Position numbers and translations under genes: made by a program. From assembly GCF_003018255.1 (NCBI RefSeq), contig NZ_CP027440.1: DNA of 64,000 nucleotides, one strand, 5' to 3'. Source of the DNA: Escherichia coli. Its GTDB lineage: Bacteria; Pseudomonadota; Gammaproteobacteria; Enterobacterales; Enterobacteriaceae. A model generated the notes under the pieces. It worked only from the letters and a program-made list of their open reading frames with translations, was not told the origin of the DNA and did no database searches. How positions within the stretch are numbered: position 1 is the first letter of the stretch; every line of letters starts with the position of its first letter. Below are positions 51,870 through 58,676 of this stretch, piece by piece.

Positions 51870-53513
51870 ATGTCCAGCTTGATCAATAACGCCATGAGCG
51901 GACTGAACGCGGCCCAGGCGGCGTTAAATACGGCAAGTAATAATATCTCCAGCTATAACGTTGCCGGATATACCCGCCAAACCACTATTATGGCGCAGGC
52001 CAATAGCACGTTGGGCGCTGGCGGCTGGGTTGGCAATGGCGTCTACGTTTCTGGTGTGCAGCGTGAGTATGATGCGTTTATTACCAACCAGTTACGTGCT
52101 GCGCAGACGCAAAGTAGCGGCCTGACCGCCCGCTATGAGCAGATGTCGAAAATCGACAATATGCTCTCCACCAGTACCTCTTCGCTGGCAACACAGATGC
52201 AGGATTTCTTCACCAGCCTGCAAACGCTGGTGAGTAACGCGGAAGATCCGGCAGCGCGCCAGGCGCTGATTGGGAAATCAGAAGGGTTGGTGAATCAGTT
52301 TAAAACCACCGATCAATATCTGCGCGACCAGGACAAACAGGTCAATATCGCGATAGGTGCCAGCGTTGATCAGATCAACAATTACGCTAAACAAATCGCC
52401 AGCCTGAACGATCAAATCTCCCGCCTGACAGGCGTGGGGGCAGGGGCGTCACCTAACAATCTGCTGGATCAACGCGATCAACTGGTGAGCGAATTAAACC
52501 AGATTGTTGGTGTAGAAGTCAGCGTTCAGGATGGTGGCACTTATAACATCACGATGGCCAATGGTTACTCACTGGTTCAGGGAAGTACGGCTCGGCAACT
52601 GGCGGCAGTTCCTTCCAGCGCTGACCCTTCTCGTACGACTGTCGCTTATGTTGATGGGACGGCAGGCAATATTGAGATCCCGGAGAAATTACTGAATACC
52701 GGGTCGCTGGGCGGCATTCTGACATTCCGTTCTCAGGATCTGGACCAGACGCGTAATACGCTTGGACAACTGGCGCTGGCATTTGCCGAGGCTTTCAACA
52801 CCCAACACAAAGCCGGATTTGATGCTAACGGCGATGCCGGTGAAGATTTCTTTGCTATCGGTAAGCCCGCGGTTCTGCAAAACACGAAAAACAAAGGTGA
52901 CGTTGCGATCGGTGCAACGGTAACTGATGCCTCCGCGGTACTGGCGACAGATTACAAAATCTCGTTCGATAATAATCAGTGGCAGGTCACCCGCCTTGCC
53001 AGTAATACCACTTTTACGGTGACGCCGGATGCCAGCGGTAAAGTGGCATTTGATGGTCTGGAGTTGACGTTTACAGGAACGCCTGCCGTTAACGACAGCT
53101 TCACGCTGAAACCGGTAAGTGACGCCATCGTCAACATGGATGTATTAATCACCGACGAAGCGAAAATCGCCATGGCGAGCGCAGAAGATACAGGTGATAG
53201 CGACAACCGCAACGGTCAGGCCCTGCTCGATCTGCAAAGCAACAGTAAAACGGTGGGCGGTGCGAAATCCTTTAACGACGCTTATGCCTCGTTAGTGAGT
53301 GATATCGGTAATAAAACCGCGACGTTGAAAACCAGTAGCACCACGCAAGGTAATGTGGTGACGCAGCTTTCCAATCAGCAGCAGTCGATTTCCGGTGTCA
53401 ATCTCGATGAGGAGTACGGAAATCTGCAACGTTTTCAGCAGTATTACCTGGCGAATGCGCAGGTTCTGCAGACGGCAAACGCGATTTTTGATGCGCTGAT
53501 TAACATTCGCTAA
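51870..53513 (+). CDS. flgK: Flagellar hook-associated protein 1 FlgK
   Basis: 547-aa ORF. Confidence 0.95.
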   Translation: MSSLINNAMSGLNAAQAALNTASNNISSYNVAGYTRQTTIMAQANSTLGAGGWVGNGVYVSGVQREYDAFITNQLRAAQTQSSGLTARYEQMSKIDNMLSTSTSSLATQMQDFFTSLQTLVSNAEDPAARQALIGKSEGLVNQFKTTDQYLRDQDKQVNIAIGASVDQINNYAKQIASLNDQISRLTGVGAGASPNNLLDQRDQLVSELNQIVGVEVSVQDGGTYNITMANGYSLVQGSTARQLAAVPSSADPSRTTVAYVDGTAGNIEIPEKLLNTGSLGGILTFRSQDLDQTRNTLGQLALAFAEAFNTQHKAGFDANGDAGEDFFAIGKPAVLQNTKNKGDVAIGATVTDASAVLATDYKISFDNNQWQVTRLASNTTFTVTPDASGKVAFDGLELTFTGTPAVNDSFTLKPVSDAIVNMDVLITDEAKIAMASAEDTGDSDNRNGQALLDLQSNSKTVGGAKSFNDAYASLVSDIGNKTATLKTSSTTQGNVVTQLSNQQQSISGVNLDEEYGNLQRFQQYYLANAQVLQTANAIFDALINIR

Positions 53514-53524
53514 GGGGAGATAAG

Positions 53525-54478
53525 ATGCGTTTCAGTACCCAGATGATGTACCAGCAAAACATGCGTGGTATCACCAATTCTCAGGCAGAATGGATGAAGT
53601 ACGGCGAACAGATGTCGACGGGTAAGCGAGTCGTTAACCCTTCAGATGATCCCATTGCTGCATCACAAGCTGTTGTTCTCTCCCAGGCACAGGCGCAAAA
53701 CAGCCAGTACACGCTGGCGCGTACTTTCGCCACTCAAAAAGTGTCACTGGAAGAGAGTGTACTTAGCCAGGTCACCACCGCTATCCAGAATGCTCAGGAA
53801 AAAATTGTCTACGCCAGCAATGGCACCTTGAGTGACGATGACCGGGCCTCGCTGGCTACGGATATTCAGGGGCTTCGTGACCAGTTGCTGAATCTGGCGA
53901 ACACCACTGACGGTAACGGGCGCTACATTTTTGCCGGTTATAAAACAGAATCCGCACCGTTTAGCGAGGCGGATGGAAAATACGAAGGCGGAGCAGAAAG
54001 TATTAAACAACAGGTCGATGCTTCGCGTTCGATGGTGATAGGGCACACGGGTGACAAAATTTTCGACAGTATTACCAGCAACGCGGTAGCGGAACCAGAC
54101 GGTAGCGCTTCTGAAACCAATCTTTTTGCCATGCTGGATAGCGCCATCGCAGCCCTGAAAACGCCGGTCGCGGATAGCGAAGCGGATAAAGAAACCGCCG
54201 CTGCGGCACTGGATAAAACCAACCGCGGACTGAAAAACTCGCTGAACAATGTGCTGACTGTTCGCGCGGAATTAGGCACGCAGCTGAACGAACTGGAGTC
54301 GCTGGATTCATTAGGTAGCGATCGCGCTTTAGGGCAAACGCAGCAGATGAGCGATCTGGTTGATGTGGACTGGAATGCAACTATTTCATCTTACATCATG
54401 CAGCAAACGGCATTGCAGGCGTCGTATAAAGCATTTACCGATATGCAGGGATTGTCGCTCTTCCAGCTCAACAAATAA
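53525..54478 (+). CDS. flgL: Flagellar hook-associated protein 3 FlgL
   Basis: 317-aa ORF; a GC hairpin plus T-run downstream (about 54520-54556) looks like its terminator. Confidence 0.95.
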   Translation: MRFSTQMMYQQNMRGITNSQAEWMKYGEQMSTGKRVVNPSDDPIAASQAVVLSQAQAQNSQYTLARTFATQKVSLEESVLSQVTTAIQNAQEKIVYASNGTLSDDDRASLATDIQGLRDQLLNLANTTDGNGRYIFAGYKTESAPFSEADGKYEGGAESIKQQVDASRSMVIGHTGDKIFDSITSNAVAEPDGSASETNLFAMLDSAIAALKTPVADSEADKETAAAALDKTNRGLKNSLNNVLTVRAELGTQLNELESLDSLGSDRALGQTQQMSDLVDVDWNATISSYIMQQTALQASYKAFTDMQGLSLFQLNK

Positions 54479-54572
54479 TTTCGCTTTAAAACATATCATG
54501 AAACTGGGTATGTTTTGTCTGCCTGCTCTGGGATCGCCGGGGCGGGCATTTTTTTGCATGAGACATAACGAA

Positions 54573-55357
<785 letters not shown>

Positions 55358-55384
55358 AAATATATCCTTCGGCTTTGCGTGGAT

Positions 55385-55425
55385 GATAATTATACAGTAC
55401 ATGTAACGCTAATGTCATTACAGCA
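55385..55425 (-). promoter_or_regulatory. Putative promoter/operator of the toxin-antitoxin operon
   Basis: Minus strand: ATGACA - 18 nt - TATAAT, with palindromes TAATGACATTA (over the -35) and TACATGTA (in the spacer). Confidence 0.4.
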
Positions 55426-55440
55426 AAGATGCTACCCCTG

Positions 55441-55470
55441 AAATAAAAAAGCCCTGGCAGTTACCAGGGC
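55441..55470 (-). terminator. Intrinsic terminator of rne
   Basis: Minus strand reads GCCCTGGTAACTGCCAGGGC followed by TTTTTT, 20 nt after the rne stop. Confidence 0.55.
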
Positions 55471-55490
55471 TTGATTACTTGAGCTAATTA

Positions 55491-58400
55491 TTACTCAACA
55501 GGTTGCGGACGCGCAGGAGCGGCAGAGGCATGATGCGTTGCCGTATGACCACCTGCGGCACCTTTGCCTTCGAAGGCAAAAGTAGGGCGCTGCCAGTCAC
55601 TGTGACGCGGTGCCTCCGGAACATATTCCGGTGCCGGAGCGCGCGTCATTGGCGCGGTAGCGTGGTTATGCTCAACGGTGATCTCTGGTTCAACCGCGGC
55701 TACCGTTTCAACTTCTGCTGCGACTTCAGCGACGACTGGCGCGGCAGGTTGAGCAACAACTTCAGGTTCAGCAACCACAACCTCAGCAGTTTCGGCAACT
55801 TCTTCAATATCAGCCGTCTCTTCCTGCGGTTCAACCACCGGTTCTGCGTGTTCTGCAACTTCCTGGGCTACGGCAACATCAGACTCGGTAATCACCTGCG
55901 GCTGTTCAGTTACCGCGGCGGCAATTACTTCAGGATGCGTCGTTTCAGCCACTTCCGGTTGCGGTTCGGCAACCTGAACGGGGGCTTCTACAACTTCAGC
56001 CACTTCTTCAACAACTGGCGCGCTAACAACCGGTTCGACAGCGGCGGCGACAGGGACCTCAGTCACCATCGGCTGCACTTGTACTTCTTCCTGTTCGCGC
56101 TGCTCTTCGACCTGTACATCTTGCGGACGTACAATTGGATAGCGGATCCAGACTTTGCCAGAGGCCAGTTCCGGAGACGCGCACGCTACGGTCAACGGCA
56201 TTGGCGATTGGGTTGGATAACGCTCGTCACGATAGCGACGACGACGCTGACCACTCACGCGCAGGTGACGAGGCGAGCGGCGAGAACGACGCGGCATGCC
56301 ACCGTTGTCACGGTTATCAGCATTGTTCTCTTCTTGCTGTTCTGGTGCAGTTTGCGCTACGACTGGCAGCGGGACTTTCACCAGTTCTGTGCGTGGAGCT
56401 GGTGCTTCCTGAACAATTGGTTCGGCAGCGACAGTTTCTTCAACCACCGGTGCGACTACCGCTTCTTCGGCTACGCTTTGCTCGTAACGCACTTTCTGAT
56501 TGAGCTGACGCTGTTTACGACGCGGCTGAACCGGACGTACACGTTCTTCCTGTTCGGTTTCCTGAACAGATTGCTCTTCAACATTCAGCGCCTTCGCTTC
56601 TTGTTGCGCCTGACGTTTATCATCGTTACGGCGGCGGCTACGTTCACGACGCGGCGCTTGCTGCTCGTCGGTGGTACGTGCTTTTTCCGTTACCTCAGCC
56701 TGCTGACGGCTCTCACGCGTCTCGGCAGTCTGCTGCTGTGCCTGGCGACGATTACGACGGTTTTCTTCGCGATTATCGCTGCCTTCAGTACGTTCACTAC
56801 GGGTGTCGCGGCGCTCATTACGGTCACGGCGGTTGTTCTGACGAGGCTTGCGACGATCCTGTTGACGTTCCGGTTTCGCTTCTGCTTTCGGTGCTGGTTG
56901 CTCGGCCGGTTTGGTTTCTTCACCACCGCTGAACAGCGCTTTCAGTGCGCCGAAGAAGCGGCTCAACAACCCTGGTTGTGCAGGAGATGCTGGTGTTGCC
57001 GTTGCAGCTTTAGGTGCTGGGGCTACAACAGGCGCGGCAGGTTCAGCTGGGGTTGGAGCTGGCGGCACATCCGGCATGGCAAAGGTTGCCAGCGCAGGTT
57101 GTTCAGGACGCTTACGTTCAGCGAACTCTTCTTCAGACGGCAGCGCCATCGCTTCTTCATGCAGCTTCGGCAGCATGTAGCTTAAGGTTGGAGTTTCTTC
57201 CCCTTTACGCACGCGCAGCACATGGTAGTGCGGGGTTTCCATCTGATCGTTTGGCACAATCACACAGCGCACGCCGTCCTGACGAGTTTCAATCGCATTC
57301 ACTGCAGAACGTTTTTCATTCAGCAGGTAAGACGCGATTGGCACAGGAACAATGGCGTGAACTTCCTGAGTGTTCTCTTTCAGCGCTTCTTCTTCGATCA
57401 GACGCAGAATAGAGAGCGACAACGATTCGTTGTCACGCACGGTACCGGTACCGGAGCAGCGCGGGCAGACGTGATGGCTGGATTCACCCAATGATGGGCT
57501 CAGACGCTGACGGGACATTTCCAGCAGGCCAAAGCGAGAAATATGGCTGATTTGAATACGCGCCCGGTCCTGACGCACCGCTTCACGCAGACGGTTTTCT
57601 ACCGCACGCTGGTGGCGTACTGGCGTCATGTCGATGAAGTCGATAACAATCAGGCCGCCGAGGTCACGCAGGCGCAGCTGACGAGCAATCTCATCGGCAG
57701 CTTCGAGGTTGGTGTTAAACGCGGTTTCTTCGATATCGCCGCCGCGGGTCGCGCGTGCGGAGTTGATGTCGATGGCGGTTAACGCTTCGGTGCTGTCGAT
57801 AACAATGGAACCACCAGATGGCAGACGAACTTCACGCTGGAAGGCGGACTCAATCTGTGACTCAATCTGGTAGTGGCTGAACAGCGGGATCTCGCCGGTG
57901 TACAGTTTGATTTTGCTGCTGAAATCCGGGCGACCTAATGCAGCGATATGCTGGCGTGCCAGTTCGAGCACTTTCGGGTTATCGATAAGGATTTCGCCGA
58001 TATCCTGACGTAAGTAATCGCGGAATGCGCGAACGATGACGTTGCTCTCCTGATGAATCAGGAACGGAGCTGGGCGGCTTTCAGCGGCTTTTTTGATGGC
58101 TTCCCAGTGTTTCAGACGGAAGCTTAAATCCCATTGCAGCGCCTCAGCAGATTTGCCGACGCCAGCGGTGCGCACGATAAGCCCCATGCCTTCCGGCAGT
58201 TCAAGGCTTGCCAGTGCTTCTTTTAATTCGGTACGGTCGTCGCCTTCGATACGACGAGAAATGCCACCCGCGCGCGGGTTGTTCGGCATCAGAACCAGAT
58301 AGCTACCCGCCAGACTGATAAAGGTAGTTAATGCCGCGCCTTTGTTGCCGCGCTCTTCTTTATCGATCTGAACAATGACTTCCTGACCTTCACGCAACAC

Positions 58401-58676
58401 ATCTTTAATGTTGGGACGACCATGAGCACTGTAGTTAGCAGGGAAATATTCGCGGGCAATTTCTTTTAGTGGGAGGAAACCGTGACGTTCAGCGCCGTAA
58501 TCAACAAAAGCAGCTTCCAGACTCGGTTCAATGCGGGTGATTTTACCTTTGTAGATGTTTGCCTTTTTCTGCTCGTGCCCTGGACTTTCGATATCCAGGT
58601 CATACAGACGCTGCCCATCTACAAGGGCAACGCGCAACTCTTCCTGCTGAGTTGCGTTGATTAACATTCTTTTCAT
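55491..58676 (-). CDS. rne: Ribonuclease E
   Basis: 1061-aa ORF: N-terminal catalytic domain ([30 protein letters not shown]...) and Arg/Pro/Glu-rich low-complexity C-terminal scaffold. Confidence 0.97.

Follow-up and report, generated by a model that had tools for sequence, protein, structure and literature searches.

The stretch of DNA analysed here (the window) comprises 64,000 nt of an Escherichia coli genome, and the interval of interest lies within it at the end of the flagellar flgKL operon. Three open reading frames, all on the minus strand, converge on flgL from the right: a toxin gene, a 97-aa gene and rne. The flgL stop codon (TAA) occupies 54476-54478 and the stop codon of the toxin gene (TAG, minus strand) 54573-54575, which leaves a gap of exactly 94 bp between flgL and the toxin stop, 54479-54572, in full agreement with the interval delimited by the first-pass annotation of this DNA. 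The features of the locus are given below, with the evidence for each in parentheses.

51870-53513, plus strand: flgK (open reading frame list)
53525-54478, plus strand: flgL coding sequence for 317 aa, the gene that closes the flgKL operon (open reading frame list; RefSeq annotation of near-identical genomes)
54478-54555, plus strand: flgO, gene for a 78-nt sRNA described as 3' UTR-derived, sigma-28-dependent and Hfq-binding (match to MG1655 b4826)
54487-54517, plus strand: FlgO stem-loop 1, an AT-rich hairpin (folds; pairing kept in aligned sequences)
54520-54555, plus strand: intrinsic terminator of flgKL and flgO, a 12-bp hairpin at 54520-54548 followed by T7 at 54549-54555 (scan, folds, conservation)
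54558-55440, minus strand: accessory segment of 883 bp replacing an ancestral 65-bp spacer, right edge ambiguous over 55422-55440 (allele alignment)
54558-54572, minus strand: 15-bp tail specific to the toxin-antitoxin (TA) allele, ATGAGACATAACGAA on the plus strand (alignment of TA-positive and TA-negative alleles)
54573-55067, minus strand: GNAT-family toxin gene, 164 aa from the RefSeq ATG (PDB, Pfam, RefSeq)
55064-55357, minus strand: TacA/DUF1778 (RHH) antitoxin gene, 97 aa (PDB, Pfam, RefSeq)
55389-55418, minus strand: promoter-like site of the TA operon, ATGACA, 18-nt spacer, TATAAT, 11/12 match (consensus match only)
55441-55472, minus strand: rne intrinsic terminator, hairpin 55472-55449 plus T-run (scan; common to TA-negative genomes)
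55491-58676, minus strand: rne

The sRNA gene flgO fills most of the interval

The curated MG1655 record places the ncRNA flgO (b4826) at 1140986-1141063, a 78-nt gene whose first base is also the final one of the flgL stop codon and whose end falls on the T-run of the terminator. Positions 54478-54555 of the window are identical to it at 77 of 78 bases, and the primer SM041, used by Melamed et al. (2023) to clone flgO, matches exactly at 54478-54500. The position in the flgL 3' UTR, the identity to the curated gene and the arrangement of two stem-loops followed by a U-tract all agree with this assignment. By sequence match, then, 77 of the 94 interval bases belong to the known Hfq-binding sRNA gene flgO, and because of this the interval is not an anonymous junction.

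FlgO has been described as a sigma-28-dependent doublet of ~75 nt that is processed from the flgL mRNA; it ranked fourth among Hfq-enriched RNAs, had almost no RIL-seq targets and gave no phenotype upon overexpression (Melamed et al., eLife 2023, PMC10578931). For the copy in the window, we assume sigma-28 dependence, processing from the flgL mRNA and Hfq binding from its near-identity to K-12. The value of the assignment is mostly one of annotation: the stretch consists of flgO and the flgKL terminator, and genomes annotated with PGAP omit flgO, which the curated MG1655 record has. All components of the locus are already known or already annotated.

On the plus strand, flgO has a fold of -31.4 kcal/mol in which the two hairpins form and U7 follows them. 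We examined the pairing across 8 distinct aligned sequences, Salmonella included, and 97.7% of the pair cells held standard pairs, compared with 31-55% when the partners were slid. All cells of stem-loop 1 paired in 8/8 sequences, the Salmonella one among them, and the GC hairpin was paired in 95.8% of its cells. In comparison with Escherichia sp. E4385, the flgO region (54479-54557) is 97.5% identical, while the flgL coding sequence reaches 90% and rne 89.5-91.4%; this degree of conservation fits purifying selection on the sRNA and its terminator. We noticed that both stems of flgO in E. albertii differ from those of E. coli in sequence and that two hairpins still fold there.

An Rfam scan of 54300-55600 at a permissive threshold returned no family over the interval, flgO itself being unmatched in the Rfam copy used; the sole match in this range, asX2 on the rne terminator, was judged to be a chance one. 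Two weak sigma-70-like matches (9/12 each) lie near the gene, one on the minus strand within the toxin 3' end and pointing to flgO (54616-54643), the other on the plus strand just upstream of the flgO 5' end (54452-54479). Such matches are at chance level (3 found against 1.9 expected in the region), and FlgO is reported to be a processed rather than a primary transcript.

Strand asymmetry of the flgKL/flgO terminator

The GC hairpin and T-run had been read in the first-pass annotation as the terminator of flgL, a reading borne out by the curated MG1655 flgO, which ends on the same T-run. Folded on the plus strand, the hairpin has 12 pairs (8 G-C, 1 A-U and 3 G-U) and a 5-nt loop, and it shows the GC-rich stem followed by a U-tract of an intrinsic terminator. 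The terminator is kept in TA-negative E. coli, E. albertii, Citrobacter koseri and Salmonella.

The two strands differ markedly in folding. The 111-nt plus-strand RNA folds at -32.4 kcal/mol, against -20.7 ± 3.4 kcal/mol for its shuffles (z = -3.46; 0/200 as good), while the minus strand of the same region reaches -21.5 kcal/mol (z = -1.99; 9/200 shuffles as good). Taken in isolation, the GC hairpin has a folding energy of -22.1 kcal/mol on the plus strand versus -8.7 kcal/mol on the minus strand, and the AT-rich hairpin -8.5 versus -4.6 kcal/mol. Read on the minus strand, the GC hairpin has A7 before it and GACAAAACAUAC after it, with no U-tract. On the minus strand, C-A mismatches stand in place of the three G-U pairs, and for this reason the flgO terminator, which is the intrinsic terminator of flgKL, should act in one direction only.

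A predicted TacAT-type operon converges on flgL

The toxin matches 7ak7_A (E = 3e-76), 5zgn_C (KacT; 4e-20) and other GNAT toxins in the PDB; it also matches Pfam GNAT domains and carries the RefSeq label GNAT family N-acetyltransferase. For the antitoxin, the PDB match is 7ak7_C (E = 1e-45), with KacA matching as well, the Pfam match is PF08681 TacA1 (E = 1e-26) and the RefSeq label is TacA family antitoxin. Neither protein was matched in the NCBIfam search. We take 7ak7 to be Salmonella TacAT2; a literature search on the PDB code 7AK7 returned nothing relevant. The two genes overlap by 4 bp (55064-55067). With a toxin of the TacT/KacT/AtaT-like GNAT fold and an upstream, overlapping DUF1778/TacA antitoxin gene, the two minus-strand reading frames are predicted to form a TacAT-type type II TA operon.

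The start of the toxin differs between sources, being GTG 55082 (169 aa) in the open reading frame list and ATG 55067 (164 aa) in RefSeq. From the latter start, the toxin gene overlaps the antitoxin stop in the sequence ATGA, as is typical for genes of TA operons. Upstream, a short palindrome, TAATG-T-CATTA (55405-55415), shares bases with the -35 region of the promoter-like site. The homologue on a Salmonella plasmid keeps it in part, and it is a candidate TacA operator.

Boundaries and distribution of the accessory segment

We aligned the window to TA-negative alleles from K-12, LF82, O157:H7 and one divergent strain. TA-negative genomes align with the window without a break as far as ...GGGCATTTTTTTGC, whose last base is 54557; a 65-bp spacer comes next, situated between the flgO and rne terminators, after which these genomes rejoin the window at AAATAAAAAAGCCCTGG, in the rne terminator, from 55441. 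The left breakpoint falls at 54557|54558, 2 bp past the T-run of flgO; it lies 15 bp beyond the toxin stop and thus inside the interval, where the first pass had expected the left boundary of a TA insertion to lie. The 15-bp tail between this breakpoint and the toxin stop constitutes the entire insert-borne 3' UTR of the TA operon. The 883-bp segment as a whole contains the TacT-like GNAT toxin gene, the TacA antitoxin gene and their promoter.

The right breakpoint is ambiguous over 18 bp. On this side, likeness to the Klebsiella and Salmonella TA homologues stops near 55421, and the 8-mer CAAAGATG (55424-55431) is the same as the 8 bp with which the K-12 spacer ends, a match that the replacement does not account for.

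We also noticed two peculiarities at the left junction. The locus of E. coli HS-02 (NZ_CP172818.1) seemingly goes without the 15-bp tail, with the toxin stop abutting ...TTTTTTTGC, and its apparent junction uses a CTATTT microhomology that occurs both around the toxin stop and where the TA-negative spacer begins. We distrust this loss of the tail, as most of the TA operon in that record is homopolymer-rich nonsense, and the HS-02 locus is almost certainly an assembly or polishing artefact. Second, a 57-aa reading frame on the minus strand (54386-54559), antisense to the flgL 3' end, has its ATG formed exactly at the junction (54559-54557); it is without a Shine-Dalgarno sequence and is probably a chance reading frame.

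A 120-nt probe across the left junction found a full-length match in 685 of 5426 complete E. coli genomes, TA-negative genomes breaking at probe position 60, which corresponds to 54557 of the window, and a probe for the K-12 spacer was matched at full length in 4735/5426. The insert is hence present in ~13% of E. coli and missing from 87%. Among 686 genomes bearing the cassette, it is chromosomal, single-copy and always situated between flgL and rne. One TA-positive strain, 104 (NZ_CP029164), is 99.9% identical to the window at this locus. E. albertii, E. fergusonii, C. koseri and Salmonella are TA-negative at the locus.

Where transcription of the TA operon may end

The insert lies between two core terminators that protect it from transcription arriving from flgKL and rne. 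The flgO terminator keeps flgKL transcription from entering the toxin gene in antisense, and the rne terminator, which belongs to the core DNA bordering the insert on the right, stops read-through from rne into the TA promoter and operon.

As for transcription that leaves the insert, scans of the minus strand with two implementations gave no terminator-like site until ~365 nt beyond the toxin stop, where a weak 5-bp stem at 54208-54196 is the first. A stable hairpin followed by a U-tract, as expected of an intrinsic or bidirectional terminator, is absent from the minus-strand 3' UTR. These scans, together with the fold of -8.7 kcal/mol and the GACAAAACAUAC tail, uphold the earlier statement that the interval has no obvious minus-strand terminator for the TA operon, and the operon appears to have brought no intrinsic terminator with it. 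At homologous TA loci in other bacteria, a terminator-like site lies within 150 nt of the toxin stop in 3/43.

At steady state, Rho-dependent transcripts of E. coli end just past stem-loops that are free of a U-tract, with C exceeding G downstream (Dar & Sorek, NAR 2018, PMC6061677). For the 78 nt that follow the toxin stop, the C/G ratio is 1.53, at the 90th percentile of the window, and for 54375-54298 it is 1.93, at the 98th percentile; when 120 nt after the stop are counted, C and G are nearly balanced (27 versus 26). The bias downstream of the toxin is modest, which counts against a Rho-dependent ending, as does the weakness of the mirrored hairpin. The suggestion of the first pass that the toxin transcript may extend in antisense into the flgL 3' end is reasonable from the sequence. 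We propose that polymerase leaving the toxin gene would cross flgO in antisense and be released by Rho, within a few hundred nt, on untranslated RNA richer in C than in G. The stable 3' end of the TA transcript may then be trimmed back to either weak mirrored hairpin, near 54520 or 54486, and a mature end there would overlap part or all of flgO. As the TA promoter is presumably autorepressed, the read-through may be quantitatively negligible. Overall, we consider it probable that the interval is the flgL 3' UTR with flgO and its terminator, that the neighbouring spacer was anciently replaced by a terminator-less TacAT operon, and that Rho ends TA transcription.

Conversely, the flgO terminator might be bidirectional in vivo, perhaps with the aid of head-on collisions with polymerases transcribing flgKL, so that TA transcription would stop near 54520, cover no more than part of flgO and never enter the flgL coding sequence. 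The flgKL and TA genes are indeed convergent, a residual hairpin of -8.7 kcal/mol persists on the minus strand, and a model of collision-assisted bidirectional termination was reportedly put forward in a 2022 bioRxiv preprint (10.1101/2022.10.23.513370). However, the stem contains three C-A mismatches on that strand, GACAAAACAUAC stands where a U-tract would be needed, and the scan rules find nothing there. Moreover, collisions would be conditional, because flgKL is transcribed only when the flagellar genes are on. We therefore regard bidirectional termination as rather unlikely.

It is also conceivable that the missing terminator is functional, with TA read-through serving as a cis-antisense regulator of FlgO and the flgL 3' end, via RNase III cleavage or Hfq titration. 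The geometry guarantees perfect complementarity to all 78 nt of FlgO, the junction is unchanged across ~10% sequence divergence, and FlgO is strongly Hfq-enriched yet nearly without known targets or phenotype (PMC10578931). Nevertheless, FlgO and its terminator are the same in TA-positive and TA-negative genomes, giving no sign of co-adaptation; 40 of the 43 homologous TA loci also go without a terminator, which makes this a default of the family rather than a local adaptation; and 87% of E. coli do without the insert altogether. We hold a regulatory role of this kind to be doubtful.

In the ~13% of E. coli that carry the insert, the read-through RNA would be perfectly antisense to FlgO, and upon de-repression of the TA operon under stress FlgO might be depleted or cleaved together with the 3' end of flgL, an outcome to which we assign only a small chance. 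If true, a persistence-type toxin module would be coupled to flagellar RNA control in a strain-specific manner. We consider an interaction between TA read-through and FlgO unlikely to matter.

Polarity and age of the replacement

The spacers of E. coli and E. albertii are clearly related (local score 53, against 15.2 ± 2.6 for shuffles; 0/500 as good), and the spacer is also homologous in a divergent Escherichia. Neither the spacer nor the filler of the TA-positive allele showed homology to the flgL-rne intergenic region of Salmonella, E. albertii being the informative outgroup. Since the spacer is homologous in E. albertii, the spacer allele is ancestral and the TA allele derived, by spacer replacement. 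We also compared the spacer with the TA cassette, and no significant similarity was seen, 68/300 shuffles scoring as well; on these grounds, we rejected the idea that the spacer is a decayed remnant of the cassette.

The replacement is old. In Escherichia sp. E4385, 89.6% identical to the window over 5.5 kb, this operon occupies the corresponding site and its junctions are identical; the 15-bp tail differs there by 2 substitutions and is longer by 1 base. Identity to the window is 92.9% for the toxin and 95.9% for the antitoxin. The replacement is thus present in at least one cryptic Escherichia lineage besides E. coli. Codon differences against E4385 are predominantly synonymous in both genes (22 synonymous versus 8 others in the toxin, 9 versus 3 in the antitoxin), an excess which indicates that both TA genes are under selection. 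Judged by these shared junctions in an Escherichia that has diverged by ~10%, the insertion is an ancient one. What the first pass tentatively called a TA insertion is more aptly named a replacement than a clean insertion: 65 bp of spacer were replaced, and the event is an old one.

The opposite polarity, in which the TA allele is ancestral and the 65-bp spacer a deletion scar after loss of the TA operon, could draw on the age of the TA allele, present in the diverged E4385, and on the short matches between spacer ends and cassette ends (CTATTT and CAAAGATG). The insignificant similarity of spacer and cassette (68/300 shuffles as good), the clear homology of the spacer among E. coli, the divergent Escherichia and E. 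albertii, and the lack of the TA operon at this locus in E. albertii, E. fergusonii, C. koseri and Salmonella all speak against it, and we deem it very improbable. Judging by the exact breakpoints, the locus presents an accessory TA module that settled in a small pocket between two convergent core terminators, its edges unchanged across ~10% divergence.

Mobility and possible donor

The first-pass annotation had raised the question of short direct repeats at the breakpoints. Alignment to TA-negative genomes gave the breakpoints, and no direct repeat of at least 5 bp and no inverted repeat of at least 7 bp was found between the two junctions. Apart from the two TA genes, the insert holds no gene; no transposase, integrase or other mobility gene is present. 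Target-site duplication, terminal repeats or attC, a mobility gene and occurrence at many sites, by which a transposon or integron cassette would be recognized, are all lacking.

We noticed that the 16-nt string CCCCTGAAATAAAAAA (55435-55450), which spans the right junction of the insert, recurs in inverted orientation on the Salmonella IncHI2 plasmid NZ_OM317741, where it lies 56 bp past the toxin stop of a TacAT homologue with ~70% similarity, and is missing from the other homologous loci compared. This recurrence could be due to chance in A-rich DNA or be a trace of the donor context.

That the TA operon arrived as a discrete mobile element (an IS or transposon, an integron cassette or a MITE-borne unit), with a terminal repeat or target-site duplication in the interval, is exceedingly improbable: the inverted recurrence of CCCCTGAAATAAAAAA near the TA operon of the Salmonella IncHI2 plasmid might favour it, but the junctions have neither direct (at least 5 bp) nor inverted (at least 7 bp) repeats, the insert encodes no transposase or integrase, the cassette is single-copy at one site in 686 genomes, and 65 bp of target DNA were replaced rather than duplicated.

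No donor can be named, because the nearest non-Escherichia toxins are only ~79% identical. Our toxin search of genome contigs yielded no close relative and no representative from Escherichia or Salmonella, its best matches being ~70% identical and scattered across Proteobacteria. The plasmid collection held only homologues of 70-72%, in addition to mislabelled chromosome records. Several "plasmid" records, of 0.16 to 5.4 Mb, bear flgL-rne or chromosomal TA loci and are evidently mislabelled chromosomes or fragments; one of them is a Salmonella "IncHI2 plasmid" with flgL and rne. A literature search found no paper on a TA operon between flgL and rne.

Comparison with known systems

On the plus strand, the hairpin of the window resembles canonical Rho-independent terminators in its GC-rich stem followed by U7. 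It is unlike bidirectional terminators, as the GUUUUGUC located 5' of the plus-strand hairpin gives the opposite strand no U-tract.

The TA operon resembles the TacAT/KacAT/AtaRT family in its antitoxin-first bicistronic order and 4-bp overlap, and its two proteins have their best matches within a single PDB entry, 7ak7, the toxin in chain A and the antitoxin in chain C. The nearest solved toxin is ~75% identical, as counted from the alignment, and acetylation of aminoacyl-tRNA is a predicted activity for the toxin described here.

In terms of transcript ends, the locus is similar to the Rho-dependent 3' ends described by Dar & Sorek (PMC6061677) in having a stem-loop that lacks a U-tract, a mild excess of C over G and an operon without an intrinsic terminator. 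Their stem-loops, however, had energies like those of intrinsic terminators, while the mirrored hairpin in the window is far weaker (-8.7 kcal/mol).

Finally, the FlgO of the window and that of K-12 share the same position, the length of 78 nt and the two stem-loops followed by a U-tract, and the sRNA itself is unchanged. Its downstream neighbour alone differs: 2 bp past the T-run, the spacer of K-12 gives way to the 3' end of a convergent TA operon.
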